The notes under the pieces are model-generated. The model worked only from the letters and a program-made list of their open reading frames with translations. It was not told where the DNA came from and searched no databases. A stretch of DNA of 64,000 nt from assembly GCA_934615235.1 (NCBI GenBank), contig CAKTTL010000002.1, forward strand, positions 6,184 to 70,183. The letters are read 5' to 3'. This document shows positions 35,148 through 62,721 of this stretch, in pieces. Within the stretch, counting starts at the first letter, position 1. Each line of letters begins with the position of its first letter. The DNA is from an uncultured Clostridia bacterium. Lineage in GTDB: Bacteria > Bacillota > Clostridia > Christensenellales > Aristaeellaceae. The position numbers and the translations under genes were made by a program.

Positions 35148-35164
35148 AGCAATGGCGCATGCTA

Positions 35165-35274: not shown

Positions 35275-35297
35275 CCGGCAGAAATGCCGGCTTTTTT
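35274..35297 (+). terminator. Intrinsic terminator immediately after repeat copy B
   Basis: GCCGGC-AGAAAT-GCCGGC followed by TTTTTT. Confidence 0.7.
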
Positions 35298-35385
35298 CGT
35301 TGTCTGGGCGTGTATATCCGCTTGGAAACGTGCTATAATAACGACGAATATTGAATCGAATTCTAAATTGGTCGGAGATGAGACG

Positions 35386-41343: not shown

Positions 41344-41604
41344 TTTCTACAGTGTATCATAAGCATTTTGAGAACGCAAACCCAATCCTAAAAGAAGAAT
41401 AAAGCAATAAATGTATATGGGCAAAGGGTTTTCCAGGGCATGGTAAACTTTTGCATTAAAAATGTAAAAATCTGCAAAAAACATGGCGGAAGGTGCCGAG
41501 TATATCAAAAAACGAAAAAAATTCTTGATTTTGCATCATTGAATAGTGACGATAAGTTATTATAATACATAGTACAAGGTAACCAAATAAAGGAGGTCTG
41601 TCTT

Positions 41605-43215
41605 ATGAAGAAACTACTCTCAATTCTTCTAACTGTGGTCATGGTTTTCTCTGTTTCCTCTGCTTTTGCGTATGAACGCGGCGAATACGAAGCAACACCC
41701 GTGCCAGTTACCATCACCAGTGCCAATATGCTGGATGTAACTCGTCAGTTTGACGAGAACAACCCTGACAAACGTAACATTAGCGAAAACCGTTGGGTTA
41801 CGGCCTATAAAGACTATCTGAATGTTGAGCTGCAGTACAAGTGGGTAGCGACTGACAGTGAGACCTCGGCTGCCAAGTGGAGCACGGCCATTGCCAGCAA
41901 TGATCTTCCTGATTTCGCTATGGTTGGGAATAATGAATATCAACTTTTGCTGGAATCTGGGCTGATTGCGGACTGCTCAGAAGCATGGGATAAGTACATT
42001 TGTCCCGAATATAAAGCGTTGCTGGACGATTCATCTATTGCACAGGTAACCTTTAATGGCAAAATGATGGGCTTCCCTTATCCGACGAAAGGATACATGG
42101 GTGCAAAAATGCTCTTCGTCCGTCAGGACTGGCTGGATCAGCTCGGCCTCGAATATCCACATACGCTGGAGGAGGTTATTGCCGTAGCCAAAGCTTTTAA
42201 GGAAGCAAAGCTTGGCGGTGACGATACCATGGCGCTTATGGTGTCGAATGAGGACGATGGGCATATTTCAGGCCTGATGAACGTGATGGGGGCATATTAC
42301 GATTATTGGGTTGAGGATGAAAACGGAAAAGTTGTCTGGAGCAATACTCAGCCTGCCATGCGCGAAGCGCTGCTGAAATTGCAGAACATGTATTCTGAAG
42401 GCCTAATCAATGAAGACTTTGCCGTTGTTACCACTGATTTGGCTAAGGAATATATTGCAGGCGGCAAAGCCGGTATTTTCTATGCCACAAGTTGGGATAC
42501 TACTATGTCTATTCAGGCACTGTACGATAATGATGAAAATGCTCATATTGTAAGCGACTATATTCATGGCATAAACGGCGAGGATGTGAAATTCCAGACC
42601 AATACCCCGATTGTTAGCAAAGTTTTCGTGAACGCCAAGTGCAGCGATGAACAGATCAAGATGATCGCTCAGATGATCAACCTCACTTTTGATCTGACGA
42701 ACTCTTCTGATTTGGAAACTTATCAGAATTATTCTATCGACTCGGATGGTCATATGTGGTTTAAGTATGTCCCCTTTGGTGACAAACCTGTTAGCACCAT
42801 CAACGATATGGCCGCTGCTTATGAGATACAGCTGGCTTATGAAGCAGGTGCTAAGACTTCGGATGACTATGAATGGGAATACACCGATGCAAAGGGCTGG
42901 TATGATTCCTATCTGGACGCGCTCAATGGCGGAAGTACCCCTGACTGGTACTATTTGACCTTTGGCAAGGGCGGCGTTTACACCCAGCTATATGATGCAT
43001 TCTTGCGTGGACTGCATCTTGCAAATGCCTATGTTGGCCTGCCAACTGCTACTCAGCAGATGATGGGAGATGTGCTTGACAGCCAGCTGAAGACGGCTAT
43101 GTTTGAAGTGATCATGGGTGCGGATATCTCTGCCTATGACGATGCCGTAAAAGTTTGGCTTTCCAGTGGTGGCCAGATGATTCTGGATGAGATCAACGAA
43201 GCGTTGGGAAAGTAA
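41605..43215 (+). CDS. Extracellular solute-binding protein, large LplA-like family-1 SBP, cassette 1
   Basis: 536 aa with an N-terminal signal peptide ending SSAFA (no lipobox Cys). Alignable end-to-end with the 536-aa SBP at 56258-57868. Confidence 0.85.
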   Translation: MKKLLSILLTVVMVFSVSSAFAYERGEYEATPVPVTITSANMLDVTRQFDENNPDKRNISENRWVTAYKDYLNVELQYKWVATDSETSAAKWSTAIASNDLPDFAMVGNNEYQLLLESGLIADCSEAWDKYICPEYKALLDDSSIAQVTFNGKMMGFPYPTKGYMGAKMLFVRQDWLDQLGLEYPHTLEEVIAVAKAFKEAKLGGDDTMALMVSNEDDGHISGLMNVMGAYYDYWVEDENGKVVWSNTQPAMREALLKLQNMYSEGLINEDFAVVTTDLAKEYIAGGKAGIFYATSWDTTMSIQALYDNDENAHIVSDYIHGINGEDVKFQTNTPIVSKVFVNAKCSDEQIKMIAQMINLTFDLTNSSDLETYQNYSIDSDGHMWFKYVPFGDKPVSTINDMAAAYEIQLAYEAGAKTSDDYEWEYTDAKGWYDSYLDALNGGSTPDWYYLTFGKGGVYTQLYDAFLRGLHLANAYVGLPTATQQMMGDVLDSQLKTAMFEVIMGADISAYDDAVKVWLSSGGQMILDEINEALGK

Positions 43216-43227
43216 GTATTGGTTTAA

Positions 43228-43266
43228 AGTGGCAGGCACGAATACTGCCTGCCACTTTGTTTTTTT
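43228..43266 (+). terminator. Stem-loop with T-run after SBP gene 1 (intra-operon attenuator/partial terminator)
   Basis: AGTGGCAGGCA...TGCCTGCCACT followed by TTGTTTTTTT. Confidence 0.6.
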
Positions 43267-43275
43267 GAAGAAAGG

Positions 43276-44196
43276 ATGGCGACCATGAAAGCACGATCCA
43301 CTACAAGGGGACAATGGAAACGAAATTTACCCCTACATTTGCTTTTGCTGATGCCGGTTATATTAACCTTTATTTATAAATACATCCCTATGGTAGGCGT
43401 TATCATGGCATTTGAGAACTATAAGCCTGCACAGGGTTTGCTCAAATCTAAGTGGGTCGGTTTGCGCAATTTCCAGTTTCTATTTATGATGCCTGGTTTT
43501 ACAACGGCCGTTTGGAATACGTTTATTATTGCTCTTGGAAAAATTATCTTGGGTATTGTGGTGCCTGTTACCTTTTCACTGATGCTCAACGACCTTAAAA
43601 GTCCTCTTCTCAAGCGGAGCATTCAGACTGTGATCTATATGCCACATTTCATTTCATGGGTTTTGATGGCAGGCATCGTTAACCGGTTACTGGCTCCCAA
43701 CGGGCTGGTGAATCAGTTCATAGTTGCATTGGGTGGAAAATCTAAAGTTTTTTTGGCGGATAAATCAATTTTTCGTCCTCTTCTGTGGATTACTGAAATC
43801 TGGAAAGAATTCGGTTATGGTACAATTGTCTATTTGGCAGCAATCTGCGCAATTGATACAACCTTGTATGAAGCTGCTGTTGTGGATGGTGCCGGCGCAT
43901 GGCAGCAAATGATTCATGTTACACTGCCAGGTCTGATTCCTACAATCATCCTGATGACGGTTTTGTCGTTGGGTAATATTCTGAATGCAGGCTTTGATCA
44001 AGTTTTTAACTTGTATTCTGAAATCGTATACAAGACAGGCGATATTATTGATACTTTTGTTTATCGTCTTGCTTTTAATAATGCACAGTTCAGTATATCT
44101 ACAGCGGCAGGTTTGTTTAAGTCCTGCATTTCGTGCGTAATGATCGTAGTGTCTTATATTATTTCTTACCGTGTCAGCGGATATCGCGTGTTTTAA
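43276..44196 (+). CDS. ABC transporter permease (LplB/CUT1-type), cassette 1
   Basis: 306-aa 6-TM protein with the EAA-loop region (..YEAAVVDGAGAWQQMIHVTLP..). Confidence 0.88.
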   Translation: MATMKARSTTRGQWKRNLPLHLLLLMPVILTFIYKYIPMVGVIMAFENYKPAQGLLKSKWVGLRNFQFLFMMPGFTTAVWNTFIIALGKIILGIVVPVTFSLMLNDLKSPLLKRSIQTVIYMPHFISWVLMAGIVNRLLAPNGLVNQFIVALGGKSKVFLADKSIFRPLLWITEIWKEFGYGTIVYLAAICAIDTTLYEAAVVDGAGAWQQMIHVTLPGLIPTIILMTVLSLGNILNAGFDQVFNLYSEIVYKTGDIIDTFVYRLAFNNAQFSISTAAGLFKSCISCVMIVVSYIISYRVSGYRVF

Positions 44197-44205
44197 GGAG
44201 AATGC

Positions 44206-45093
44206 ATGATGATACGCTATCAAAATAGTCTCTCCAGAAAATCTTTTGTAATTCTAAATCATTTTATGACGATCCTCATCTGCCTCATCTGCCTCTTGCC
44301 ACTTATCTATGTGCTGGCTATCTCGTTAAGCAGCAAAGAATATATTATAGCAGGCAAAGTAACCCTGTTTCCTAAAGGATTTACTTTGTCTAATTATCAA
44401 TATGTGATGAAGGATGCGCAGTTTTATACGTCATTTGGTGTTTCTGTATATCGAACGTTGCTTGCGGTTGTTGTGCAGATGGTAATGACTATTTGCGCAG
44501 CCTATCCACTATCTATCAGCAAGTACAAGTTCAGACAGCGCCCTCTTTATGCGTGGTATTTCATTATTACTATCATTTTCAATGGTGGCATGATTCCCAC
44601 CTATCTGGCTGTGAGTAATACAGGATTGCTTAATACAATTTGGGCTTTGATCATCCCCGAGGCAGTCCCTGTATTCAACATCATTCTATTGTCGAACTAT
44701 ATGAAGACTTTGCCCGATGCGCTAAGCGAATCCGCGTCACTGGATGGTGCAGGACATATTCGTATCATGCTGCAAATCATTTTGCCTCTCTGCATTCCTT
44801 CCCTGGCTACTCTTACCTTGTTTGTGATGGTAGGCGCATGGAATGAATGGTTTGCCGGTATGTTATATATCAACAATCCCAATCTTTTCCCGTTGCAAAC
44901 TTATTTGCGTGCTTTGATTGTGGAAGTTGATATAAATCAAATGAGTGATCTGAATTCTATGGCAAATCTTGTTGCAAGTGTTGGCGCAGACACCGCTAAA
45001 ATTTTCCTTGCAATGATTCCGATTCTGTGCGTATATCCGTTTTTGCAAAAGTATTTTGTGAACGGGTTGGTCGCAGGAAGCGTAAAAGAGTAA
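44206..45093 (+). CDS. ABC transporter permease (LplC/CUT1-type), cassette 1
   Basis: 295 aa with ..SASLDGAGHIRIMLQIILPL.. as the EAA loop. Confidence 0.88.
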   Translation: MMIRYQNSLSRKSFVILNHFMTILICLICLLPLIYVLAISLSSKEYIIAGKVTLFPKGFTLSNYQYVMKDAQFYTSFGVSVYRTLLAVVVQMVMTICAAYPLSISKYKFRQRPLYAWYFIITIIFNGGMIPTYLAVSNTGLLNTIWALIIPEAVPVFNIILLSNYMKTLPDALSESASLDGAGHIRIMLQIILPLCIPSLATLTLFVMVGAWNEWFAGMLYINNPNLFPLQTYLRALIVEVDINQMSDLNSMANLVASVGADTAKIFLAMIPILCVYPFLQKYFVNGLVAGSVKE

Positions 45094-45102
45094 AAAGGAG
45101 AA

Positions 45103-45840
45103 ATGATTATGGAACTGCGTTGCAAAAAAATTATTATTTCAGGCGGCGGAAGTGGTATCGGTCTTGGTATTGCTCGCAAATGCGTATCGCTTGGGGCGCA
45201 AGTGGTGCTTATGGGACGAACTGAGTCTAAATTACGCTGTGCCACAGATGAACTGGGCGAACGAGCCCATTATCATGTGCTGGATGTAAGTGATATTTCT
45301 GCCTTTTCGGCGGCAATCGATGCGGCGTGTACAATTATGGGAGGGGTGGACGGTTTGGTAAACAGTGCTGGCGCATGCGCCTATACCCATGAATGGGGAG
45401 CAGGAATGTTCGAGCAAACAGAGGATGAATGGGATAAAGTGATGGATACCAATGTAAAGGCCCCTTTTTTCCTTTCGCGTGCAGTACTAAGCTATATGAT
45501 GACCCATAAGGTAGCGGGAAACATTCTCAATGTTGTTTCAGAAGCAGCCTTTGTTCCAGCATCTGCCAGCTATGGCGCCAGCAAGCACGCGCTCCGCGCG
45601 CTGACCGCGGGACTTTCACAAGCCGCTATATGTTATGGTGTTGTGGTCAACGGCATTGCGCCCGGTACAACTGCAACGGATTTTGTTGATGTTTCCACAG
45701 AGCTTGCCATGCATCGCCAGGCGAATGGTCGTTTGGGAACAGTAGAAGAGATGGCAGAACTTGCTGCATTTCTTATGAGCCGTGAGGGTGAAAACATTAT
45801 TGGTCAAACGATTCTATCCTGTGGCGGAAGTACATTTTAA
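45103..45840 (+). CDS. Classical short-chain dehydrogenase/reductase (SDR)
   Basis: SGGGSGIGLG cofactor motif, NSAG, and catalytic S...YGASK (YxxxK). There is a 9-nt gap from the permease and a 12-nt gap to GRE1. Confidence 0.88.
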   Translation: MIMELRCKKIIISGGGSGIGLGIARKCVSLGAQVVLMGRTESKLRCATDELGERAHYHVLDVSDISAFSAAIDAACTIMGGVDGLVNSAGACAYTHEWGAGMFEQTEDEWDKVMDTNVKAPFFLSRAVLSYMMTHKVAGNILNVVSEAAFVPASASYGASKHALRALTAGLSQAAICYGVVVNGIAPGTTATDFVDVSTELAMHRQANGRLGTVEEMAELAAFLMSREGENIIGQTILSCGGSTF

Positions 45841-45852
45841 AGCGGAGGTTAT

Positions 45853-47949
45853 ATGATGATTAGATCCGAAGCAAGTCCACGAGTAAAACGTCTGTTTGAG
45901 ATGGTTCAGGAAAATCCAATGGTGCGTGGTGAACTGGATTACTATCATCCTGGACGGCAAAAATATTTGTTTCTGAAAGGCTGGATTGTGAACAATCAAG
46001 TTTTTTCAGTTCGCCTGCATCGGGCCTATGCAGAAGCATATGTGTTGGAACATATGCGACCTGTGATAGCCCACGACGAATTGATTGTTGGAACGCCTGA
46101 ACTGCAGAGCCTGACGTCGGCTGAACAGAAAGAAATGGAAAATCTGCAATGGGTTGAAAAAAGCATGCAGCGTTATAATGGCCGCCGGGGACACATGACG
46201 CTGGACTGGGCTAAACTGCTCAGATTGGGTGTAAATGGAATGCTGGAAGAGTTGCAGACTAAACGCGCAGCGTTAGATATCGAGAAAAACGAAGATCTCT
46301 CCAAGGATGAATTCTATGAGGGATGCATTGTGGAACTTACTGCCTTACTGGGACTCGCAAGACGCTATGCACAGGCAGCGCGAGAAATGGGAAAAGATGA
46401 TGTTGCGGATATTCTTGAACGTGTCCCGGCTCAGCCTGCTAAAACATTTCGCGAAGCACTTCAATCAATTCATTTTTATGTATTCACGCTCTGGGACCTA
46501 TACTTCTTTGGAAGAATAGATCAGTTCCTGATTGACTATTATCGTAAAGATATTGCAGATGGAATTTTAACACACGAGGAAGCGCAGGAACTTGTGGATT
46601 GTCTGATGCTTCTAACCGCGGAATACATCTCAGCAGATTCTGTGCAGGTATGTACCATTGGTGGGCGCGATCCTAAAGGAAATCCTGTAGATAATGAAGT
46701 AACGCATCTGTTTTTGCAGGCCTGTACCCATGCACCCGTTCAGACTGCGCAGATAGCCCTTTTGGTACGAAATGACACGCCACAGGAAACACTGCGTTTT
46801 GCAGTTGAGCAACTGGCACAAGGGTGTTCTCAACCGCAGTTGTATAATGATGATGTCATTACTCGTTCTATGCGAAGGTGGGGATTCCCAGAAGAGCAGT
46901 GTCATGATTATGGGAATTGTGGGTGTGTGGAAATTGTTCCCTGCAACTGTTCGGGCATTTTTACTGTAAGCCCCTATCATAATCTTGTTGCCATGCTGTT
47001 GGAAGCGCTTCATACAGAACCTGAGGATTATGAGACACTAAAAAAGCGTTTTGCAGAAATTGTTAACCGCGAAGTGCGAAAGGAGAACATTCGCGAACGC
47101 CGTGACCAAATGGAGCGAACCCGAAACGGAAATGAATGCCTGCGCGTATCCTGCCTGGTAAATGACTGCATTGCGCGTGGAATGTCCATTGATGAAGGCG
47201 GTGCACGTTATAATCATATACAGCCTAACTTTTTGGGTATGGCAAATGTGGTGGATGGACTGGTAGCAGTTAACCGGTTGGTGTATGAAAGCAAAGAGTA
47301 TACGCTTTCACAACTACTGGACATTCTGGATAGCAACTTTGAAAAAGATCCTTTGTTACGCATGCGTATTATACATAAACTTCCACACTTTGGCACCAAT
47401 GAACCGGAAACGGATGCATTAATGCATTGGCTTGGCGAAATACTTCTAGCCAGTTGTAAGGGGTTGACATCCTATCGGAATGAAGATCCTTGCGTACCGG
47501 GTGCTTTTTCCTACAAGGAGCATAGCCGTCATGGAAGTCGGACAGGCGCATCACCGGATGGGCGACTTGCAGGAATGGCTTTGGCAGCAGGTTCGAGTGC
47601 CGTTCAGGGAATGGAAACCGCTGGACCTACTGCTGCATTATGTTCAAACCTGGCTTGGGAACAGGAAGCTTTTCTTGGTGGCATTGCTAACAATTTGATG
47701 TTTTCTAAGAAGCAAATGAGTGGTGAGTCGCTTGAAAAAATGGTTGAATTGGTTAGACACTTTTTCGCACAAGGTGGCATGCAGCTTCAAATTAATATTA
47801 CTGATAGAGAAACGCTTCTGAAAGCACAGATTGAACCGGAAAAGTATCGCGACTTATTGGTTCGAATTGGTGGATTCAATGCTCGTTTTGTAGCCTGCGA
47901 ACCAGAACTTCAGCAAGAGATTATCGAACGTAATGAACATGTTATCTGA
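45853..47949 (+). CDS. Glycyl radical enzyme, PFL2/dehydratase-like class, unusually short (698 aa), substrate unknown (GRE1)
   Basis: C-terminal glycyl radical motif VRIGGFNARF (Gly674, nt 47872-47874). Thiyl loop G-C-V-E (Cys358, nt 46924-46926, and Glu360). GGARYN and SPDGR blocks present. Confidence 0.9.
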   Translation: MMIRSEASPRVKRLFEMVQENPMVRGELDYYHPGRQKYLFLKGWIVNNQVFSVRLHRAYAEAYVLEHMRPVIAHDELIVGTPELQSLTSAEQKEMENLQWVEKSMQRYNGRRGHMTLDWAKLLRLGVNGMLEELQTKRAALDIEKNEDLSKDEFYEGCIVELTALLGLARRYAQAAREMGKDDVADILERVPAQPAKTFREALQSIHFYVFTLWDLYFFGRIDQFLIDYYRKDIADGILTHEEAQELVDCLMLLTAEYISADSVQVCTIGGRDPKGNPVDNEVTHLFLQACTHAPVQTAQIALLVRNDTPQETLRFAVEQLAQGCSQPQLYNDDVITRSMRRWGFPEEQCHDYGNCGCVEIVPCNCSGIFTVSPYHNLVAMLLEALHTEPEDYETLKKRFAEIVNREVRKENIRERRDQMERTRNGNECLRVSCLVNDCIARGMSIDEGGARYNHIQPNFLGMANVVDGLVAVNRLVYESKEYTLSQLLDILDSNFEKDPLLRMRIIHKLPHFGTNEPETDALMHWLGEILLASCKGLTSYRNEDPCVPGAFSYKEHSRHGSRTGASPDGRLAGMALAAGSSAVQGMETAGPTAALCSNLAWEQEAFLGGIANNLMFSKKQMSGESLEKMVELVRHFFAQGGMQLQINITDRETLLKAQIEPEKYRDLLVRIGGFNARFVACEPELQQEIIERNEHVI

Positions 47950-48853
47950 TAAAAAAAGTGTATCGGGGTTGGTTTCAAACATCCAACGATTCTCGCTGAA
48001 CGATGGCCCAGGGATTCGTACAGTTGTTTTTCTGAAAGGATGCCCACTAAAATGCCCATGGTGTCATAACCCTGAATCTCGTCGGTTCTATCCTGAAATT
48101 ATGCTTGACGAGAAAAAATGTGTTGGCTGTGGCCAGTGCACAAAAACGTGTACCTTACATCACTTTGTCGATGGACAGCATTTTATCGATAGAGAAAGAT
48201 GCAAACATTGCGGTCTTTGCGCACAGATATGTCCTACTAACGCACTGACACTAGTTGGAAAGTGCATGACGGTTGAGGAAATCTACCAGGAGGCAATGCA
48301 AGACTATGGATTTTGGGGAGAATCAGGTGGTATTACGTTATCAGGCGGAGAGCCATTAGCGCAGCCTGAATTTTCTATGGCAATTCTGCGGCAGTTTCAT
48401 GAAAAAGGGATTCATTGTGCAATTGAAACCAGTGGATATGCGCCATGGGAAGTATTACAACGGTTTATTCAGCAGACTGACTTGTTTCTATTCGATATTA
48501 AGGAAACGAATAGCGAACTTCATCAGGCGTATACAGGTGTAGCAAAGGAGCAAATTATTCAAAATTTAGATTATCTGAACCAGTCGAATGCGAAAGTTAG
48601 GCTCCGTTGTCCCATTATTCCAGGATACAATGACAGGGAAGGACATTTGTTGGAGGTTGCCAAGCTTGCTAATCGTTTTTCTTGCGTAGAACGAATAGAA
48701 ATAGAACCTTACCACCCCTTAGGACGCTCAAAGGCAAGGCAATTGGGAGAAGCTTATGTGTTGAATGATCAGGGTTTTCCGGATGCAGAAAGCGTAGCTC
48801 ATTGGTTAGAAATTCTTGGTTCTGCAACATTGAAACCTGTTGTGCGTTCATGA
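47933..48853 (+). CDS. Glycyl-radical-enzyme activating protein (radical SAM) with two auxiliary ferredoxin-type clusters (AE1)
   Basis: CPLKCPWCHNPE (CX3CX2C), then CVGCGQCTKTC and CKHCGLCAQICP. Overlaps the GRE1 stop by 17 nt. Confidence 0.9.
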   Translation: MNMLSDKKSVSGLVSNIQRFSLNDGPGIRTVVFLKGCPLKCPWCHNPESRRFYPEIMLDEKKCVGCGQCTKTCTLHHFVDGQHFIDRERCKHCGLCAQICPTNALTLVGKCMTVEEIYQEAMQDYGFWGESGGITLSGGEPLAQPEFSMAILRQFHEKGIHCAIETSGYAPWEVLQRFIQQTDLFLFDIKETNSELHQAYTGVAKEQIIQNLDYLNQSNAKVRLRCPIIPGYNDREGHLLEVAKLANRFSCVERIEIEPYHPLGRSKARQLGEAYVLNDQGFPDAESVAHWLEILGSATLKPVVRS

Positions 48854-48866
48854 TGCTAAAACAAAG

Positions 48867-48894
48867 CGCCATGTTTTCAGAGACATGGCGTTTT
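48867..48894 (+). terminator. Intrinsic terminator ending the cassette-1 operon
   Basis: CGCCATGT-loop-ACATGGCG followed by TTTT. Confidence 0.7.
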
Positions 48895-49074
48895 GTAATT
48901 TGTTGCTCTGATAATTGGCGAAAATAAGGAAAGCCATATTCATGCTTGCTTGAAAGTGATAAAAAACAACACGGTAAAACGTAGCAAGTAATGTTGTGAG
49001 ATCAACAAACTACTTTTGACGAAAAATCGACTCGTTATCCTTTGAGGTGGATTCAACTTTGCTTTGTTTTGATA

Positions 49075-49869
49075 TTACCTGTCATCATTCAAAAGGCTGT
49101 ACGCCTTTGGCGAAACGCCCATCTCGCGCTTGAAAACTCGAATAAAGTAACTGGCGCTGGTAAAGCCGGTCAGATCTGCGACGGCGGCAATGCTCATTTT
49201 TTCTTGCTGCAGCAGTTTTGCGGCTGCTGTTATGCGACATTCTGTTAAACACCGGCCAGGGGTTTGGTGGTAGCGTGTTTGGAACAATTCGCCGAAGCGC
49301 CTTTGACTGAGACCGGCGCAATGCGCCGCATCTGCAATGGAAAGCGTGTTGTCTGCGTAGTTGCGCATCAGATAATCTCTGGCTGAGGCTAATTTGTCGT
49401 CGCTGTGCATCGTGGCTGGATCCGCCAATAAAAACAGATGGGATAAAATCTCGTAAAAACAGGAATAACAGGCATAAGCATCTGCCGAGTGGCCGGATGC
49501 CAGGTATTGATTCCAGGAATCCAACAATTTGAAAAAGGCGCTTTTAATTTGCGGCTGATTGCCGCAATTGTATACGGCCAGATGCAGGTCGAAAGGTTTG
49601 ATCGTTGTGAAATGGACGGCAATACAGCCGCCTTTTATTCCATCCATTTCCATTTCGTGACGCAGTACGCGATAATGATCCGTGCTGTTGGCTACCATGA
49701 GCATATCCTTTCCGAATGGCAAAAGAGTCCCTCCGCTTTCGTGCATGGAAAGGCCATGCAGCTTATAGGCCAGAAAATGGGAGGTGTCATTCATATCGCG
49801 TTCCCAACTTCTGGCGTGAACACCGAATCGATATACTTTGATGATTTTATCGAGAATAATCCTGTGCAT
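49075..49869 (-). CDS. AraC-family transcriptional regulator, divergent from GRE2
   Basis: Likely start is the ATG at 49869 (MHRIILDK..) after GGAGGGG. Cupin-like N-terminus plus a C-terminal HTH (..GLSQRRFGELFQTRYHQTPG..). Confidence 0.85.
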   Translation of the reverse strand: MHRIILDKIIKVYRFGVHARSWERDMNDTSHFLAYKLHGLSMHESGGTLLPFGKDMLMVANSTDHYRVLRHEMEMDGIKGGCIAVHFTTIKPFDLHLAVYNCGNQPQIKSAFFKLLDSWNQYLASGHSADAYACYSCFYEILSHLFLLADPATMHSDDKLASARDYLMRNYADNTLSIADAAHCAGLSQRRFGELFQTRYHQTPGRCLTECRITAAAKLLQQEKMSIAAVADLTGFTSASYFIRVFKREMGVSPKAYSLLNDDR

Positions 49870-50032
49870 TCGTTTCCCCTCCAGCGAATAACAGTATAGC
49901 ATATTTTGAAATAGTATGATAGAAAATTTCCGTATAATGCTATTTTTCTTTATCTTGCGATTTACACTGTGACGCGCCGCTCATACAATTAAAACACCGG
50001 ATACACATGAGCTGATCGAAGGAGGAGAGCGT

Positions 50033-52282
50033 ATGAATTTTCAGGCGTTTCAGAAAGAACTGACCCGGTATTATTGGAATGAGGTTGACGATCTGTCGGA
50101 GGCGTTTCGCAAGGCTGCATATGCGTCGCTTGATGAACATTGCATGCCGGAGATGAACGGTTATCAGCGCAAAGCGCTGCAATATAAAACCATCACCGAG
50201 ATGTGCGAACCCAAGCTGTTTCATACTTCGCCTTTCTACTATGAGCTTGGCACCATGAGCGCGCATTGCGACGGTGCGGGAGAGTTCCGTGGGCACGTAC
50301 ACGCGGGGAACTGGAACTATGAACGGTCAGAACACATGTTTGCCGATCAGGATCCCGAGCTGTTTTCTGTCCGCAATGCGCAGGCAGGTAATTTGCTTTA
50401 CCTCATCTGCGGGCCTTACAGTGACACAAGGCAGCATTTTATTTTCAATTGCAAGCCGCTTTTTAAGGGCGGGCTTAAAATGTTGTATGATAACGCGCAA
50501 GAACAGCTTTGCCATGCAAAAACGGAGGAAGAACACGACTTTCTGAATGCGGCGATTGATGGCCTGCTGTGCATGAAGAAAATTTCTGAGAAATTTGCAG
50601 AAGCGGCAAAAGAGAGAGCGAGAACTGCTTCCAGTCCGGATGAAATTTTCAATCTGGAACGAATTGCTGAAGCGGCAGCCTACACGCCGTGGAACGCACC
50701 GCGTACATTTTATGAAGCGCTGAACCTGCTGGCTTTCTGCCGGACGGTTCCGGGCGCATTGGAGGGCGTTGGATATAACACCTTTGGGCGACCGGATGTT
50801 GAATTGCTTCCCTTCTATGAAGGCGATCTTGCTGCCGGGAGACTGACAAAGGAAGAGGCGTATGAGCTCATTCAGGCTTTCCTGCTTACATGGGATTGTC
50901 ATTATGATCATGATATGAAAATGGTCGGATATGCCGATCATGAACTGGAAAACACGTATACGCTCGGCGGCTGTGACGCGGCAGGAAAGCCGGTCTGGAA
51001 TGAACTGACCGCAATGTTCCTGAGGGCGACCAGTCAGCATAAAATTATTTTCCCGAAAATCAAAGTGCGTTTTTCCAGCCAGTCGCCGCGTGAGTTCCTG
51101 GATGCGGCGGATCTGGATGTGATTCACAGCACGTCTTCCATTCTTTATCAGAATGACGAGGCAACGATTGCCGCACTGGTGCGCGGAGGGGCTTCGCTGG
51201 AAGATGCGAGGGATTATCTGATTACCGGTTGCTGGGGCTTGCTGACGAACGGGAACAGAATGGACGATCAGGGCAATTATGTAAATATACTCAAGGCATT
51301 TGAGATGTCCGTTCACAATCGCCAGGATAAAATGCGGGAGTGCAGTCTGTTCTTCCTGCCGTTAGACGGCGCGAAAAGTTTTGAAGACGTATATCGTATT
51401 ACGGTGGAAAACTGTCGGATTCTTTTCCGTGAGCGCAACAGAATGACGTTGAAGGGAAAGGGAATCTGGCCGCAGGTGGATCCGCTTCCGCTGACTTCTT
51501 CTTCAATGGACGGCTGCCTGCAGAGCCGTTTGGATTTGACGAACGGCGGGTGCAAATATCATAACGAGAACTATATGCTGGTTGGCTTCCCGAATATCAT
51601 TGACGCGCTGCTGGCAATCAAGACGCTTTGCTTCGATGAGAAAAGGTACGCGCTGGATGAATTTTTAAGCGCGGTGCGCTGCAATTGGGCGGGGCATGAG
51701 GAAATGCGTCGCGCAGCGACCCGCTGTCCCTGCTGGGGAGATGCAAGCGAGGAATCCAATAAACTGGCTGCACGATTCAATCATGATCTGCTTGAACTTG
51801 CAGGAGAATTGAAAACGCTGTGGCCCGGAGGCCGGTGCGACATCGGGCATTGCACGTATACGGAAATTCGCTTCTGGGCAGAAAAAACGCTCGCGACGCC
51901 TGACGGCAGGCGCAACGGTGATTATTTCTCGCAGGGGCTTACGCCTTCCCGCTTACACAGAATTGAAAGCGTAACGGATGTAATAAACAGCCTTGCCGCG
52001 CTGGATGGCAGCGAGATGGGAGGCAATTCGGTTGTTAACATTATTCTGCCTTCTACCGGAATGACGCTGGATCATTGCGCAGCATTCCTGTATGCATGCG
52101 CGCAGAGCGCGATGGGCTCGCTGCAACTGAACTGCGTTACGAAAGAACAGCTTCTGGACGCGCAGATTCATCCGGAAAAACACCGCGATTTGATCGTTCG
52201 CGTATGCGGCTTTTCCGCACGCTTTACGAGCCTGTCTCCTGAATGGCAGCAGGAGGTGCTTAGTCGCAATTTCTATGATTAA
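50033..52282 (+). CDS. Glycyl radical enzyme with an atypical thiyl loop (749 aa), substrate unknown (GRE2)
   Basis: Glycyl radical motif VRVCGFSARF (Gly726, nt 52208-52210). The Cys loop is I-T-G-C-W-G (Cys400, nt 51230-51232), which has neither the PFL Cys-Cys pair nor the Cys-x-Glu pattern. TPDGRR block present. Confidence 0.88.
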   Translation: MNFQAFQKELTRYYWNEVDDLSEAFRKAAYASLDEHCMPEMNGYQRKALQYKTITEMCEPKLFHTSPFYYELGTMSAHCDGAGEFRGHVHAGNWNYERSEHMFADQDPELFSVRNAQAGNLLYLICGPYSDTRQHFIFNCKPLFKGGLKMLYDNAQEQLCHAKTEEEHDFLNAAIDGLLCMKKISEKFAEAAKERARTASSPDEIFNLERIAEAAAYTPWNAPRTFYEALNLLAFCRTVPGALEGVGYNTFGRPDVELLPFYEGDLAAGRLTKEEAYELIQAFLLTWDCHYDHDMKMVGYADHELENTYTLGGCDAAGKPVWNELTAMFLRATSQHKIIFPKIKVRFSSQSPREFLDAADLDVIHSTSSILYQNDEATIAALVRGGASLEDARDYLITGCWGLLTNGNRMDDQGNYVNILKAFEMSVHNRQDKMRECSLFFLPLDGAKSFEDVYRITVENCRILFRERNRMTLKGKGIWPQVDPLPLTSSSMDGCLQSRLDLTNGGCKYHNENYMLVGFPNIIDALLAIKTLCFDEKRYALDEFLSAVRCNWAGHEEMRRAATRCPCWGDASEESNKLAARFNHDLLELAGELKTLWPGGRCDIGHCTYTEIRFWAEKTLATPDGRRNGDYFSQGLTPSRLHRIESVTDVINSLAALDGSEMGGNSVVNIILPSTGMTLDHCAAFLYACAQSAMGSLQLNCVTKEQLLDAQIHPEKHRDLIVRVCGFSARFTSLSPEWQQEVLSRNFYD

Positions 52283-52290
52283 GGAGATAT

Positions 52291-53130
52291 ATGCAGATGA
52301 AAGGCATGCTCTTCGATATTCAGCGCGCTTCCACTGTGGATGGTCCGGGATTTCGTACTACGGTTTTCTTTAAGGGATGTAACCTCCGCTGTGCATGGTG
52401 CCATAATCCGGAAAGTCAGTCTGCTGTGCCGCAGCTGCTGTTTTATCAGGAGCGCTGCACGCATTGTGGACTTTGCGAACGGGTTTGCCCTTACGGGCTT
52501 AGAAAGTGTGATTTGTGCGGAAAATGTGCGGATGCATGTCCGCAGGAGGCGCGCAGCCTGTGTGGGATGGAATATACAGTAGAGGATGCAATGAAGAAGA
52601 TTCTGCCGGATCGTCTGTTCTATCAGACGTCCGGCGGAGGGGCCACTTTCTCGGGCGGCGAGTGTATGCTGCAATTGGGTTTTCTAAAAGAATTGCTTGA
52701 TTCTTGCAAAAAAGAAAAAATTCACACTGCAGTGGATACGGCAGGCGCTGTGCCGTGGAGGTCTTTCGAAGAAATTCTGCCGTATACGGATATGTTTCTC
52801 TATGATGTAAAGAGCATGAATTCTCAGCGTCATAAGGAATATACGGGTGTTGGCAACGAACAGATATTAGAAAACCTGTCGCGCTTGCTGCAGATGCAAA
52901 AACGTGTCTGGGTGCGTGTGCCGATTATTCCGGGGGTAAACGATACGCTGGAGGAGATGCGCGCGCTGCGCGCTTTCCTCCTTGCAAATGGCTATCCGAA
53001 AAAAGTGGAGCTTTTGCCATATCATCGCATGGGCGAAATGAAATGGAAAGCGCTCGGTCAAAAGGCGACGCTTTTCAATCCGCCTTCTGCTGAACAGGTG
53101 GATACGCTGCGCAATGCAGTAAAACCGTAA
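52291..53130 (+). CDS. Glycyl-radical-enzyme activating protein (radical SAM) with two auxiliary cluster motifs (AE2)
   Basis: CNLRCAWCHNPE, then CTHCGLCERVCP and CDLCGKCADACP. Confidence 0.9.
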   Translation: MQMKGMLFDIQRASTVDGPGFRTTVFFKGCNLRCAWCHNPESQSAVPQLLFYQERCTHCGLCERVCPYGLRKCDLCGKCADACPQEARSLCGMEYTVEDAMKKILPDRLFYQTSGGGATFSGGECMLQLGFLKELLDSCKKEKIHTAVDTAGAVPWRSFEEILPYTDMFLYDVKSMNSQRHKEYTGVGNEQILENLSRLLQMQKRVWVRVPIIPGVNDTLEEMRALRAFLLANGYPKKVELLPYHRMGEMKWKALGQKATLFNPPSAEQVDTLRNAVKP

Positions 53131-56257: not shown

Positions 56258-57868
56258 ATGAAGAAACTTTTGGCTTTGGTATTGTCCCTGCTGATGGTGC
56301 TCACCGCGGCGAGCGCCATGGCGAAAACGGACATTCCCGACCTGTCCGGGCTGGAGGGCATTGCCCGCTTTGAGGAGCCGGTGCAGATTTCTTTTGCCCG
56401 TGTAATGGATTCAGCAGCTCAGTTCGATGATACAGATCAGGAGAAGAAATCCTATACCGAGAACCGCTGGATTAATACGTTCAAGGACGTGTTAAACGTT
56501 GAAGTGACATTTGACTGGGTTACTTCGCCTGATGATGATACCGCCAAATGGGGCGCGGCGATTGCCAGCGGCAACCTGCCGGACGCCGGTATGGTCAGCG
56601 ACGAAGTGTATAAGCAGCTGGTGGAAGCCGGTCTGGTCTACGACTGTACGGAGCTGTATGCGAATGAAATTTGCGAAAAGTATAAAAGCTTCTGTAATGA
56701 AGATCTGGTTGCAAACATGACTTTTGACGGCAAGCTGTACGGCCTGCCGATTCCCGGTAACTACTATATCGGCAATGCGCAGCTGTTCGTCCGCGGGGAT
56801 TGGCTCAAGCAGCTCAACCTTGAAGTGCCGACTACGATCGATGAAGCGATTGCGGTTGCACGCGCTTTCAAGGAAGCCAAGCTTGGCGGCGAGGATACGA
56901 TCGGCATGATGTTTGCCGATGGCTCCGGTGTGAACGACGGTCACCTGAAAGGATTCATGAATGGGTTTAACGCCTATCGCGATATGTGGGTCGATGTGGA
57001 CGGTAAGCTGGCGTTCAGCAACACGCTGCCTGAAATGCGCGAAGCGCTGCTGAAGCTGCAGGAAATGTATGCGGAGGGCCTGATTAATAAGGACTTCTCC
57101 GTTACCAACGGCACCGTCGCGCAGGAATATGTCGCCAGCGGCAAGTGCGGCATTTTCTACAGCACCGATTATGCCACGACCATGTCCATGCAGGCGCTGC
57201 ATGATCTGAATCCGGAAGCGGAAATTATTTGTGTCGGCGTCCCCGGCCTGACGGCGGATGCGGAGACGAAAGTTCAGACGTTTGCCGTCCTTGCTAGAAA
57301 ATTGTTTATCAATAAGGACTGCAAGCATCCTGAGGCGGTTGCACGCATGTTGAACTTGCATGTTGGAGCTTCTACGGGCAACGCGGAAATGGCTTCGGCT
57401 CTAGAAGTTGATGTGGATGATTCCTATCTGTGGTATAAACTGCTGCCCTGGAATGGTATACACATTCAGCCGGTAACCAATGACATCTGGGTTGCCGACG
57501 ACGTGCGCGTCTGGCAGGAAACCGGCGTTGAAAATTATCGCGGCGCGAACAGCCAGTCGATTATCGAAGCCTGCAAAGATCCGGCCTCCCCGTGGTGGTA
57601 TCTTGCCACATTCGGAAAGGATGCATCCTATACGTACGACTATGACATGTACATGGCCGGCCGGCAGTTGCCCAACGCGTTCAGCACCGTTCCGACTGAA
57701 ACCATGGCCATGCTCGGCGACGTTGTGAACGACGCGCTGAATACCGCGATGCTCGAAGTTATTATGGGCGCGGATATTTCTACGTACGATAAGGCTGTGG
57801 AGAACTGGTTCACCAGCGGCGGCCAGCAGATCACCGATGAAGTGAACGAGTGGTACGCTTCCAAGTAA
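56258..57868 (+). CDS. Extracellular solute-binding protein, large LplA-like family-1 SBP, cassette 2
   Basis: 536 aa with a signal peptide ending ASAMA (no lipobox Cys). Shares blocks with SBP1 (AKW..AIAS..LPD, REALLKLQ.MY.EGLIN, EVIMGADIS.YD.AV..W..SGGQ). Confidence 0.85.
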   Translation: MKKLLALVLSLLMVLTAASAMAKTDIPDLSGLEGIARFEEPVQISFARVMDSAAQFDDTDQEKKSYTENRWINTFKDVLNVEVTFDWVTSPDDDTAKWGAAIASGNLPDAGMVSDEVYKQLVEAGLVYDCTELYANEICEKYKSFCNEDLVANMTFDGKLYGLPIPGNYYIGNAQLFVRGDWLKQLNLEVPTTIDEAIAVARAFKEAKLGGEDTIGMMFADGSGVNDGHLKGFMNGFNAYRDMWVDVDGKLAFSNTLPEMREALLKLQEMYAEGLINKDFSVTNGTVAQEYVASGKCGIFYSTDYATTMSMQALHDLNPEAEIICVGVPGLTADAETKVQTFAVLARKLFINKDCKHPEAVARMLNLHVGASTGNAEMASALEVDVDDSYLWYKLLPWNGIHIQPVTNDIWVADDVRVWQETGVENYRGANSQSIIEACKDPASPWWYLATFGKDASYTYDYDMYMAGRQLPNAFSTVPTETMAMLGDVVNDALNTAMLEVIMGADISTYDKAVENWFTSGGQQITDEVNEWYASK

Positions 57869-60090: not shown

Positions 60091-62721
60091 TCAACTTTCC
60101 AGACTCAGCTCGTAGGTGCACAGATAGAACAGGAACGAGGTCATCTGATAGCGGCTGATGCGGGTGTCGGCAGCGTCCAGCAGCTCTGGCAGGTCGCTGT
60201 CTCGCGTAGTGATGTCTTCCTGATTGCACCAGAGCATGGCGCGGATGGTTTCGATGCTGAGCTGCGGTTCGGCCTGAATCGTTTCCAGAAGCAGTGCCCG
60301 GTCTACGGCCGTGTCGACGCCGGCCATGGCCGCATAGCGATAGATCAGCACGCATGCGGTTTGGTAGTCCACTTTATCCGTGCAATCCGTACATGGATCG
60401 TCCTGCTGGAGCAGCCCTGTCTGCCAGGCCCAGCATATGGCGCTGTAATAGGAGCTGGCGGCGTTAAAGTCCTCGTTTTCAGAATCGGGCGGCAGGGCGA
60501 AGTCGTTCGTTTCAGGGCGTCCGGCGATCCGGTAGAGTACATCCGCAAATTCACCCAACTTCGCCGTGGCCTTTCCGCCGAAGGTATCCGGAGCCTCCGG
60601 GTCCACATACCCGTTGCGGTACATATACAGGACGCTGGCCTGATTGAAGATGCTCTTGATGTCTGTAAATACTATGGTGTCCTCCAGACTTCCGCCGCTT
60701 GGCTGCTTGTCGAAGACGTGGGCATAGTAATCGCTGTTGACAATATTTTGGGAGAGCTGGAATTTGTTTTCCACATAGAGCCGGTACGTATCGATCGTTT
60801 CATCGGAGACGATGACGTCCGCGCGCGCGGGGATGACGGTTTCTGTTCCGGCGTCATAACGGAAGTTTTTTGTCAGAAAAGATTTGTCCGACAGCACCGC
60901 CATATGGATGCCGCTGGATAATATGTCGGTGCCTGCCAGCAGGCGCGAGTCATAGTCTACGCCGAACAGGTTCAGAAGCGTCGGCAAAATGTCGGCTGTT
61001 GAGCAGTATTCATCTACCACAATATTCTCCGGAAGCCCGGGAACGTAGCAGATGAAGCTGTTGAGGTATTTTTCAAAGGTGGCGTCCAGCGTTTGACCGG
61101 CCAGTTCGTTGTATTCCGCTTCTGTCAGGCCGTAGGGATAATGATCGTTGGTCAGAACGATGCAGGTTTTTTCGGCGATTCCCGCCGCTTCCAGCCGCTG
61201 CGTCAGGTATTCCAGCGCGTACTCCAGCTCCAGATTGCAGGCGATATACGCCTTGACTGGCTCGGAAGCAGGCAGATTCTTCACCGCATCTTTGTTCTTG
61301 GCGCTCATGGCGTTATGCCAGTTGTACTGGTAATGGCCGCTGAAGGTCATGTAATAGGCGTGAAAGGGCGTTTCGCTTTCGATATAGTCGTCTACGGAGG
61401 CCTGCATCATCTCCAGATCGGACGAAGGCCAGTCGATTTTCATATCCAGACCGGAATCCGCTGCTTGAAAGGTGTAGCCCATATTGGCGTGCGTGATGTT
61501 CCGGTTGTAAAAATCCCCGATGTAATCGTGATAGGCCCAGGTTTGATATCCCATGTCCCTGAGCGCGTTGCCCAGGCAGAACGGGAGATAATTGGCGCCC
61601 GCCACGTTGAAGCTGGAATCGGTTTTGGTACGGGACATATCCGGATACAGCCCCATGCACAGGGTGTACTCGCCGTTGGTGGTGACAGACTGGAAGGTGC
61701 CGTAGTAATTTTCGAAGAGGATGCCCGTACGCGTCATCTTGTAGAGCGTAGGCGTCAGCTCTTCGCTGATGAACCAGGGGCAGAAACTTTCAGCGCAGAT
61801 CGTGATCAGATTATAGCCCTCCAAAAGAGCGGTGTAGTTATTTTTGCGGGTAGGGATCACGTTTGCCAGATACTGATCCGTGTTTTTCAGGATTTCGCTG
61901 TCGGTGCTGTCCGCCAAATCGGTAAAGGAAATGTCTTCAATCACATTATAGGAATTGCTGCTGTAGGTTCTCGGACTGCCGCTTGTACCCAGAGACGACG
62001 GAGTAATGATGGTGCTGTTCCGGCTGCCGAAAAGCATATAGCGAAGCTCCTGCACCGTGGTAGCCAGCATGCCGACCTTTTTATAGCTGCTGTCGGTGGA
62101 GGTATTCACGTTGAGAAAGGTGTGGTACACGGAAAGGGGCGTGTTCCGGCCGGAAAGAATGAGCCCCGCAGTCAGGGCCAGCAGGGTCAGCAAAGCGGCA
62201 AGGGATGCAATTGCCTGCTTCCAATGGAGCCGGATTTTCAGCGCGCCTGCCCTGCGCAGCTTAAGGCAGACGATCATCACGGGCAGCGGCGCCAACAGCA
62301 GAAGGATTGACGGCAGGTTCCTGACGACGCTGTAGAGGAGCTGAGAAGCAAAATTGACGATAACATTTCCGCCCATGCTGATCTGATTGATGGGCATGAA
62401 GTTTCCGAATATAGCCTGATAGACCAGCTGCACCTCGGCAAACAGAACCTGCGCCGCCACCAGAAGGAATCCTGCGAACTGACGCAGGATTCTGGGCAGA
62501 CACGAGACAAGCAGCGAACTGAGCGCGCCGCCCAGCAGGCCAAACAGGAGCAGGTAGACCGCATAACGATCCAGCGAGCGGTATACGCAAAGGTGAAGAC
62601 AAAGCTCCACGTAGACGCCGGCGGAGCAGAAAAGAAGCAGGTTGTCGCGCCATGTTTTCCAAAGGCAGCGGGGCGACGTCGTATTCAAGGCGGAAGCATC
62701 GCCGGAGTTGACTTTGAACAT
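60091..62721 (-). CDS. LTA-synthase (LtaS)/sulfatase-family membrane protein with a ~200-aa C-terminal extension containing SLH-like repeats
   Basis: 876 aa with N-terminal multi-TM segments, an alkaline-phosphatase-superfamily core (..LITICAESF..TTNGEY..) and C-terminal FTDI...GYV...FGG...EFADVLYRI-type SLH-like segments. Confidence 0.7.
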   Translation of the reverse strand: MFKVNSGDASALNTTSPRCLWKTWRDNLLLFCSAGVYVELCLHLCVYRSLDRYAVYLLLFGLLGGALSSLLVSCLPRILRQFAGFLLVAAQVLFAEVQLVYQAIFGNFMPINQISMGGNVIVNFASQLLYSVVRNLPSILLLLAPLPVMIVCLKLRRAGALKIRLHWKQAIASLAALLTLLALTAGLILSGRNTPLSVYHTFLNVNTSTDSSYKKVGMLATTVQELRYMLFGSRNSTIITPSSLGTSGSPRTYSSNSYNVIEDISFTDLADSTDSEILKNTDQYLANVIPTRKNNYTALLEGYNLITICAESFCPWFISEELTPTLYKMTRTGILFENYYGTFQSVTTNGEYTLCMGLYPDMSRTKTDSSFNVAGANYLPFCLGNALRDMGYQTWAYHDYIGDFYNRNITHANMGYTFQAADSGLDMKIDWPSSDLEMMQASVDDYIESETPFHAYYMTFSGHYQYNWHNAMSAKNKDAVKNLPASEPVKAYIACNLELEYALEYLTQRLEAAGIAEKTCIVLTNDHYPYGLTEAEYNELAGQTLDATFEKYLNSFICYVPGLPENIVVDEYCSTADILPTLLNLFGVDYDSRLLAGTDILSSGIHMAVLSDKSFLTKNFRYDAGTETVIPARADVIVSDETIDTYRLYVENKFQLSQNIVNSDYYAHVFDKQPSGGSLEDTIVFTDIKSIFNQASVLYMYRNGYVDPEAPDTFGGKATAKLGEFADVLYRIAGRPETNDFALPPDSENEDFNAASSYYSAICWAWQTGLLQQDDPCTDCTDKVDYQTACVLIYRYAAMAGVDTAVDRALLLETIQAEPQLSIETIRAMLWCNQEDITTRDSDLPELLDAADTRISRYQMTSFLFYLCTYELSLES

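Follow-up and report, generated by a model that had tools for sequence, protein, structure and literature searches.

GRE2 is a predicted glycyl radical enzyme (GRE) encoded on contig CAKTTL010000002.1 of an uncultured Clostridia bacterium, within a stretch of 64,000 nt that was analyzed as a whole and is referred to here as the window; all positions follow the numbering of this window. The segment 49075-53130 contains three open reading frames (ORFs), which encode an AraC-family regulator, GRE2, and the radical S-adenosylmethionine activase AE2 (Table 1). The N-terminal ~160 residues of the regulator, presumed to be a ligand sensor, match no known domain in Pfam or NCBIfam. A predicted hairpin downstream of AE1, the activase gene of a second GRE of the window (GRE1), appears to separate the GRE1 operon from the AraC/GRE2 unit. 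Because of this hairpin, a promoter-like site, a GGAGGAG ribosome-binding site 6 nt 5′ of the GRE2 ATG, and the short gap between the two genes, GRE2-AE2 looks like its own transcription unit, divergent from its regulator, in line with the separate unit and private AraC regulator claimed in the initial annotation. The arrangement is best explained as a self-contained radical-enzyme module, and its induction by the substrate is proposed.

Table 1. Predicted features of the GRE2 locus (positions in the window)
Feature	Position	Strand	Description
Hairpin	48861..48896	+	16-pair stem; directly 3′ of AE1; terminator-like on both strands
AraC-family regulator	49075..49902	-	275 aa; divergent from GRE2; HTH_18/HTH_AraC at C-terminal residues 193-268 (Pfam, NCBIfam)
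Promoter-like site	49961..49989	+	TTTACA-17-TACAAT; 10/12 match, consensus match only; in the 130-bp AraC-GRE2 intergenic region
GRE2	50033..52282	+	749-aa PFL-like glycyl radical enzyme; Pfam PF02901 and PF01228
Gln134-His135	50432..50437	+	Both invariant; His135 aligns with GDH His164
Acidic/His-rich loop D288-N307	50894..50953	+	DCHYDHDMKMVGYADHELEN; D288, Y300, H303, E304, E306, and N307 invariant
Cys loop G399-C400-W401-G402	51227..51238	+	Within DYLITGCWGLL; Cys400 (nt 51230-51232) is the predicted thiyl radical site
Tyr609-Thr610-Glu611	51857..51865	+	Tyr609 and Glu611 invariant; follows barrel strand 602-606; segment aligned with that of GDH Tyr640 (alignment only)
Gly loop R723-V-C-G726-F727	52199..52213	+	Predicted glycyl radical site, Gly726 (nt 52208-52210); motif VRVCGFSARF
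AE2, radical-SAM activase	52291..53130	+	279 aa; start 9 nt after GRE2; TIGR02494

Sequence and structural model together indicate that GRE2 has every structural element of an active GRE of the pyruvate formate-lyase (PFL)-like type. Its PFL-like domain (PF02901) scores 286.8 bits (cut-off 24.3, E = 5.5e-85) and its Gly_radical domain (PF01228) scores 58.4 bits (cut-off 22.2, E = 1.2e-15), the cut-offs being the Pfam gathering thresholds; the superfamily is also catalogued as IPR004184. Residues 723-745 match, as a regular expression, the whole of the published glycyl fingerprint RVxG[FWY]x6-8[FL]x4Qx2[IV]x2R (PMC13450708). A TPDGRR block lies at residues 622-627 and an NGGCKY block at 504-509. 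These blocks, the VRVCGFSARF and DYLITGCWGLL motifs, and the motifs of AE2 are all present as described in the initial annotation, with Gly726 and Cys400 at the codons it had given. Position 725 (nt 52205-52207), just before the radical glycine, is occupied by Cys in 77 and by Thr in 36 of the 113 family members (RV[C/T]GF), whereas the aligned eliminases have Ala here.

An AlphaFold2 model of GRE2, with 113 homologs as input, has a predicted local distance difference test score (pLDDT) of 94.5 and a predicted template modeling score (pTM) of 0.93. The two finger loops of a GRE are both recognizable in the model: strands 395-398 and 402-405 are joined by a turn at G399-C400-W401, and strands 721-724 and 727-730 by a turn at residues 725-726. 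The ten-stranded β/α barrel is recovered both in the model and by Foldseek, in which the top 50 matches are all GRE structures (E ~1e-41 to 1e-30, template modeling (TM) scores of 0.76-0.86). The CutC, propanediol dehydratase (PD), glycerol dehydratase (GDH), HypD, HplG, and PflD structures are about equally similar to the model (TM 0.81-0.86), and no eliminase or isomerase structure stands out in the Foldseek search. AE2, in turn, appears from its sequence to be a bona fide GRE activase, cognate to GRE2. It harbors the CX3CX2C motif CNLRCAWC (residues 30-37, nt 52378-52401) and two ferredoxin-like CX2CX2CX3C motifs at residues 56 and 73, and it scores 337.8 bits on the NCBIfam activase subfamily TIGR02494 against a cut-off of 174.35.

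The Cys loop is one place where GRE2 departs from its characterized relatives. All characterized eliminases, whether acting on C-O, C-N, or C-S bonds, and all characterized isomerases keep a Cys-X-Glu (CXE) sequence, Cys-Cys is confined to PFL and TdcE, and phenylacetate decarboxylase (PAD) carries Gln484 two residues past Cys482 (PMC13450708). In HMMER alignments to solved structures, Cys400 falls on the catalytic Cys of IseG, CutC, GDH, and HypD, and Gly402 on the CXE glutamate of the same enzymes. The loop of GRE2 reads C400-W401-G402 instead of CXE, and the residue before Cys400 is Gly399 and not a second Cys. Because this June 2026 review assigns CXE to eliminases and isomerases, Cys-Cys to PFL and TdcE, and Gln to PAD, the C-W-G loop lies outside the reported patterns of formate lyases, decarboxylases, eliminases, and isomerases, the groups to which the comparison is confined.

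This departure is family-wide. A search of 5.8 billion proteins retrieves at least 120 GRE2-family clusters (formed at 90% identity) that are 55-98% identical to GRE2 and almost all 744-760 aa long. Where the clusters carry names, these are "hypothetical protein", "pyruvate formate lyase family protein", or "formate C-acetyltransferase", none of which is informative. In an alignment of 113 GRE2 homologs (55-98% identity), to which all conservation counts refer, G399, C400, and W401 are invariant (113/113), while position 402 varies (Gly 76, Asp 25, Leu 3, Ser 3, Glu 2, and Gln 2). The initial annotation had described a loop that is neither Cys-Cys nor CXE, and had taken Cys400 to be catalytic. 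Both descriptions are borne out, with Trp401 in 113 and Glu402 in 2 of the 113 sequences, and with Cys400 at the hairpin tip of the model, in register with the Cys of the solved structures, and invariant. It had also singled out the GCWG loop as a feature whose conservation should be checked, and here the outcome is divided: GCW is strictly kept, but Gly at the fourth position is present in only 76 of 113. Glu304 and Glu306 are each conserved in 113/113, and K47, Q134, H135, E244, R253, D255, D288, Y300, H303, N307, Y416, N418, E424, Y609, E611, R626, and G726 are invariant as well. In total, ~95 columns are invariant beyond Gly726, Cys400, Trp401, and His135.

A genome scan identifies 149 loci with a GRE2 homolog. 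The best 80 of these 149 are all from metagenome-assembled genomes (MAGs) of uncultured Clostridia (Oscillospiraceae, Acutalibacteraceae, Christensenellaceae, and "Eubacteriales"), with no cultured representative among them; they derive from human (Hadza), goat, buffalo, horse, and deer gut and from rumen. Searches of the PDB (by sequence and profile), NCBIfam, Pfam, the cluster names, the 2026 GRE review, and full-text literature (including "GCWE" together with "glycyl radical") reveal no homolog of assigned function with this loop. Such a homolog would have contradicted the initial annotation. The GRE2 family is large, conserved, and uncharacterized. Two loci (L032 and L045) each encode two GRE2-family paralogs, three genes apart, and one member of each pair has a GCWA loop.

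The initial annotation had proposed that the nearest characterized relatives be sought by profile. The best PDB profile matches are CutC, GDH, HypD, PD, and HpyG (280-310 bits), all of which are eliminases or isomerases, while PFL scores 96 bits. GRE2 misses every NCBIfam cut-off against which it was compared, with 257 bits of the 678 needed for TIGR01774, 208 of 1050 for CutC, 203 of 1100 for HypD, 217 of 1000 for HpsG, and 202 of 1000 for HpfG.

The alignments to solved structures also reach into the predicted pocket; the numbers of CutC Phe389 and Tyr506 and of GDH Ser282, Tyr339, and Tyr640 were counted along the aligned sequences. In GDH, His164 is proposed to act as the general acid toward the leaving hydroxyl, which it would protonate (PMC13450708), and GRE2 has the invariant His135 at this position. 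The acidic/His-rich loop D288-N307 precedes the strand that ends in G312-G313. Six residues before these glycines is Glu306, at the position of CutC Phe395, HypD Phe340, and GDH Tyr339, where the corresponding strands read FINLTVGG, FANINTGG, and YQNLIVGG, respectively. The aromatic residue at this position packs on the substrate in CutC and HypD, and the known substrate-packing aromatics are CutC Phe395, HypD Phe340, and IslA Trp374 (PMC8473560); Phe395 is essential in CutC. GRE2 lacks this aromatic and has an invariant glutamate instead. Of the remaining positions, Tyr300 aligns with CutC Phe389, Asn249 with GDH Ser282, and Tyr416 with CutC Tyr506. The alignable pocket positions are polar and acidic, which argues against a hydrocarbon or an arylacetate as the substrate. 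Glu306 is proposed to be either a relocated base or a substrate-binding carboxylate.

The wider relatives of GRE2 point to the origin of this arrangement. An exhaustive phmmer search against 1.84 billion cluster representatives yields 4926 matches, of which ~70 clusters (50% identity) align with GRE2 over its full length, including the atypical N-terminal ~130 residues; beyond these lie ordinary GREs, which align from about residue 135 only. The relatives form three layers. In the first, which unites the GRE2 clade with its sisters, the Cys loop reads GCW[G/D/S] and positions 303-306 read (H/Y)-E-x-E. The second comprises clusters that are 38-42% identical to GRE2 and have GCWE, that is, CXE with X = Trp, along with a small residue at position 306. 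The third is a large and more distant GGCQE/GGCHE group. Because the relatives at 38-42% identity read GCWE, GRE2 appears to descend from CXE-type enzymes.

Among 27 Cys-Trp representatives, 15 have Glu402 without Glu306 and 11 have Glu306 without Glu402; one has both and none has neither. For this association, Fisher p is ~9e-7, uncorrected for shared ancestry among the 27 representatives, and an alignment-free check that reads the residue six before the strand GG agrees with it. In a neighbor-joining (NJ) tree, the Glu402 and Glu306 states are interleaved, which hints at more than one switch between them, although the tree is not robust.

Because of the GCWE ancestry, the retained His135, the closest profile and fold matches, and the gain of Glu306 with the loss of Glu402, GRE2 is probably a re-wired eliminase or isomerase, that is, a variant of a known enzyme type. 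The initial annotation had gone further and held that its chemistry probably differs from that of GRE1 and of the main characterized classes. The premises of that claim stand, in that the loop breaks the known patterns and no functional homolog is found. However, the GCWE relatives, His135, the eliminase and isomerase matches, and the gain of Glu306 indicate re-wiring rather than a different class, and to this extent the claim overreaches.

A more specific version is advanced tentatively, with a little less than an even chance of being correct: GRE2 would be a thiyl-initiated eliminase or isomerase that acts on a polar, probably glycan-derived substrate and whose base has moved off the Cys loop. 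AE2 would install the radical on Gly726, which would in turn generate the Cys400 thiyl radical for hydrogen abstraction from a carbon that bears or adjoins a hydroxyl of a small polar substrate. A carboxylate would then deprotonate this hydroxyl to yield a ketyl-type radical. This base is most likely the invariant Glu306, possibly assisted by Glu304, both on the loop that leads into the G312-G313 strand; Glu306 would replace the aromatic that normally packs on the substrate, and the CXE glutamate at Cys+2 would not be used. His135 would protonate the β leaving group, which is the eliminated group or, should GRE2 be an isomerase, a ring heteroatom. Last, the product radical would regain hydrogen from Cys400. 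A sugar or sugar derivative originating from glycans is suggested as the substrate because of the acid- and hydroxyl-rich pocket and the scattered glycoside hydrolase, esterase, aldo-keto reductase (AKR), and short-chain dehydrogenase/reductase (SDR) genes in the vicinity of GRE2 homologs.

Several observations weigh against this proposal. The covariation of positions 402 and 306 is phylogenetically structured, and the NJ tree is not robust. Asp402, present in 25/113 sequences and in most sister clusters, may serve as a short base, such that the relocation would be partial. The placement of Glu306 and Glu304 in the pocket derives from sequence alignment to solved structures, and loop 289-307 is the least confident part of the model core (pLDDT 77-83). 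The glycan link is drawn from variable, non-conserved neighbors in genomes that are rich in such genes. Finally, the conserved acidic residues may serve to bind a cation or metal rather than act as the base.

The latter possibility can be formulated as a reading of its own, in which D288, H293, D294, D302, H303, E304, and E306, along with D412 and E611, bind a cationic group, such as an amine or an amino sugar, or a divalent metal that holds a vicinal diol. The cluster is dense, with at least six invariant or near-invariant acidic or His residues within 20 positions, and it lies on a loop that contacts the substrate in CutC and HypD; CutC, in which Asp216 and Phe395 serve choline, offers a precedent. 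GH20, GlcNAc 2-epimerase, a BNR protein, and a ceramidase-like amidase are occasional neighbors, but those related to amino sugars are sporadic. To our knowledge, no characterized GRE has an active-site metal, which counts against the metal version. We consider this reading unlikely, and it does not in any case conflict with a re-wired eliminase or isomerase.

It is similarly doubtful that the reaction lies outside the current GRE classes and proceeds without a Cys-loop base, be it a PAD-type decarboxylation, a C-C lyase or ligase reaction, or an epimerization, with Trp401 and the acidic loop as a new active-site logic. The CXE sequence is kept by all characterized eliminases and isomerases and Cys-Cys occurs in PFL and TdcE only; PAD, with its CXQ sequence, is a GRE that works without the glutamate. 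GRE2 also falls far below every NCBIfam equivalog cut-off, TIGR01774 included, and a stand-alone set of regulator, enzyme, and activase with no conserved downstream enzyme would suit the release of a dead-end product. However, the close GCWE relatives keep CXE, such that Trp401 is not tied to the loss of the glutamate, the general-acid His is invariant, and the loss of Glu402 is matched by Glu306. Moreover, decarboxylases and X-succinate synthases are less similar to GRE2 than are eliminases, and no small subunit of the HPAD or BSS type recurs among the conserved neighbors. Assignment to the decarboxylases HPAD and IAD is rejected on the basis of the scores on NF033715 (122 of 1150 bits) and NF033718 (145 of 1100), along with the lack of a recurring small Fe-S subunit gene among these neighbors. 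X-succinate synthases are likewise rejected: AE2 reaches 215 of 496 bits on the BssD-type TIGR04003, no accessory subunit recurs among the conserved neighbors, BSS and MASS rank among the weaker matches in the PDB, and the alignable pocket positions are polar. Nor is GRE2 an aminoacyl radical enzyme (AARE), in which Ala, Ser, or Thr replaces the radical Gly, as Gly726 is present and invariant.

The boldest reading would make the GCW/H-E-x-E clade an eighth functional GRE type, in which the invariant acidic/His loop D288…H303-E304-x-E306, possibly via a divalent metal or a cationic group, takes over from the Cys-loop glutamate and holds and activates a diet- or host-glycan-derived substrate in a reaction that is not that of a formate-lyase, decarboxylase, eliminase, isomerase, or hydroalkylase. 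We regard this, too, as improbable.

Far less probable still is that GRE2 is a degenerate or non-catalytic paralog, either a decaying duplicate or a radical-storage protein, in which the loss of the glutamate amounts to the loss of function. The canonical base is indeed absent, and about half of the homologs lack an adjacent activase. However, at least 120 clusters at 90% identity keep an intact length of ~748 aa, and Gly726, Cys400, Trp401, and His135 are invariant along with ~95 other columns. The dedicated regulator is conserved, and in the window the activase gene follows GRE2 closely, after a gap of 9 nt. A pyruvate or 2-ketoacid formate-lyase, as implied by database names and the Pfam PFL-like domain, is scarcely credible given Gly399 in place of the first Cys of the Cys-Cys pair, a TIGR01255 score of 66 bits against a cut-off of 994, and an alignment to E. 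coli PFL that is confined to the C-terminal glycyl domain.

The genomic neighborhood was compared across 77 loci, namely the window and 76 fetched loci in which the GRE2 homolog is found by a simple ORF caller. Of the 74 loci that have an upstream gene, 58 carry a homologous AraC regulator in divergent orientation at position -1, and the median intergenic gap is 127 bp. One upstream partner cluster (cluster 16) is dismissed as probably an ORF-caller artifact, a wrong-strand ORF in high-GC DNA, so AraC regulators may be undercounted. The gene immediately downstream encodes an activase in 28/69 loci, and an activase lies within five genes in 36/77. Clustering of the neighbors reveals nothing conserved across the 77 loci beyond AraC and, less often, the activase. 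SDRs and β-lactamase-fold hydrolases are each found in nine loci and ATP-binding cassette (ABC) permeases in eight, and the 37 extra genes that are likely co-transcribed fall into nearly as many clusters (glycoside hydrolases GH127, GH20, and GH2, the esterase CE2, AKR, aldolase, TRAP transporter, and others). Carbohydrate-active GH127, GH20, GH2, and CE2 are occasional co-directional neighbors, and in two lineages an AKR gene directly adjoins that of the GRE2 homolog. A TRAP transporter and a pair of an HpcH-type aldolase and a BNR protein also occur. These occasional neighbors lend weak support to a glycan-derived substrate.

In ~12 loci, AraC-GRE modules stand in tandem with other short uncharacterized GRE families. 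In six loci (L026, L035, L042, L047, L049, and L070), tandem divergent AraC-GRE arrays surround the GRE2 homolog at ~10-12 kb. Their GREs are 683-764 aa long, have Gly loops that read RVTG[YF]SDYF or RVCGWN, and are often accompanied by an SDR and a β-lactamase-fold hydrolase. Several unknown radical enzymes seem to be grouped into islands in these uncultured Clostridia. Downstream of the GRE2 homolog of another locus (L003, 12322-22247), a CAP12/PCTIR TIR-domain protein, an AAA_11/AAA_12 helicase, and a protein kinase form a defense-like group that appears unrelated to the GRE.

GRE2 is flanked in the window by two paralogous ABC cassettes, each with a YesM/YesN-like two-component system. Cassette 1 (38406-48853) consists of a YesN/YesM-like response regulator and histidine kinase on the minus strand, divergent from genes for a binding protein, two permeases, an SDR, GRE1, and AE1. 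The binding proteins of the two cassettes (41605-43215 and 56258-57868) are putative solute-binding lipoproteins of 536 aa that are 44% identical to each other and match nothing in Pfam or NCBIfam. GRE1 (698 aa) has a CGCVE loop, falls far below every NCBIfam equivalog cut-off, and has glycerol dehydratase as its best PDB match (260 bits); it is a second uncharacterized short GRE, of the CXE type. From its position between the cassettes, the initial annotation had suggested that GRE2 processes the product of GRE1 or a second related substrate. This link does not survive the comparison, as the arrangement is not conserved: ABC permeases occur in only 8/77 loci, and a GRE1-like enzyme with an SDR stands beside a GRE2 homolog only in the window and in L070. 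Processing of the GRE1 product by GRE2 is accordingly rejected as a conserved relationship.

Across 38406-62721, the G+C content is 0.50-0.55 in GRE2, AE2, cassette 2, and an LtaS-like gene, 0.48 in the AraC gene, and 0.40-0.49 in cassette 1. This difference between cassette 1 and GRE2/cassette 2 suggests that the two halves of the low-GC part have different histories. Convergent with cassette 2, on the minus strand (60091-62721), is the gene of an 876-aa sulfatase-fold protein whose match to lipoteichoic acid synthase is weak (94.6 of the 970 bits required). Further upstream (1-38100), the G+C content breaks sharply, from ~0.60 up to ~32 kb to 0.41-0.55 thereafter. Genes for a DUF4143 ATPase (35152-36645) and a Mutator-family transposase (37106-38074) lie at the transition. 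The gene order is shared by an independent metagenome contig (L001), which stops near the transposase. Acquisition of the GRE region as an island may explain the break, as may an assembly artifact at the join.

Several anaerobic reactions of great consequence in the gut are carried out by GREs, which produce trimethylamine, H2S precursors, p-cresol, and skatole and degrade hydroxyproline. The GRE2 clade, abundant in human (Hadza) and herbivore gut MAGs, breaks the CXE rule of every characterized eliminase and isomerase. Whole GRE clades are still without a function (PMC13450708). Unannotated clades are to be expected, but that of GRE2 stands out as large, gut-associated, and, among the best 80 of its 149 loci, known from MAGs only. 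The covariation of Cys+2 and position 306 leads to a hypothesis open to mutagenesis, namely that the catalytic base can migrate within the GRE barrel. For annotation, GCW together with (H/Y)-E-x-E-x5-GG can serve as the signature of the clade. The AraC-GRE-activase module is compact enough for direct reconstitution, and its regulator could lead to the inducer and, through it, to the substrate.

Among known systems, the GRE 1,2-eliminases (B12-independent GDH, propanediol dehydratase, CutC, HypD, and IseG/IslA) share with GRE2 the fold, the highest profile scores, a single Cys in the Cys loop, the His at the GDH His164 position, and an activase with two ferredoxin motifs. However, GRE2 is only ~20-23% identical to them, has the variable Gly402 in place of the CXE glutamate, Trp at Cys+1, and Glu306 instead of the aromatic. 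It is also 40-100 residues shorter, its N-terminal ~130 aa are unmatched by standard profiles, and no microcompartment or pathway genes are nearby. The GRE isomerases YbiW, PflD, and HplG are similar in fold (TM 0.82-0.86) and in size (765-810 aa), and the profile scores of GRE2 against isomerases are 225-262 bits. Their substrates are sugar-derived or hydroxylated cyclic compounds, which fits the loose carbohydrate context of GRE2. In contrast to GRE2, the isomerases keep CXE and belong to phosphotransferase/aldolase pathways, and their sugar-phosphate binding residues are not evident in GRE2.

Phenylacetate decarboxylase (PAD/PhdB) resembles GRE2 in that it lacks the CXE glutamate (Cys482-x-Gln484). 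However, it belongs to a different clade, and its pocket and substrate are aromatic and hydrophobic; the models of related arylacetate decarboxylases give GRE2 122-145 bits against cut-offs of 1100-1150. GRE1 (45853-47949) is, like GRE2, a short, uncharacterized PFL-like GRE with its own activase. The two are 25% identical, and GRE1 differs in its canonical C-V-E loop, its G+C content (0.45 versus 0.51 for GRE2), and its operon, which also encodes a solute-binding protein, permeases, and an SDR and is under the control of a two-component system. The nearest relatives are the short GREs of the GCWE type (P0122, P0123, P0127, and P0128; 38-42% identity), which have no known function. They share with GRE2 the length, the N-terminal domain, the Trp after the Cys, His135, Tyr609/Glu611, and the VRVCGFS Gly loop, and they differ from it in that they keep the Glu at Cys+2, have Ala, Asn, or Gly at position 306, and are devoid of the H-E-x-E motif.

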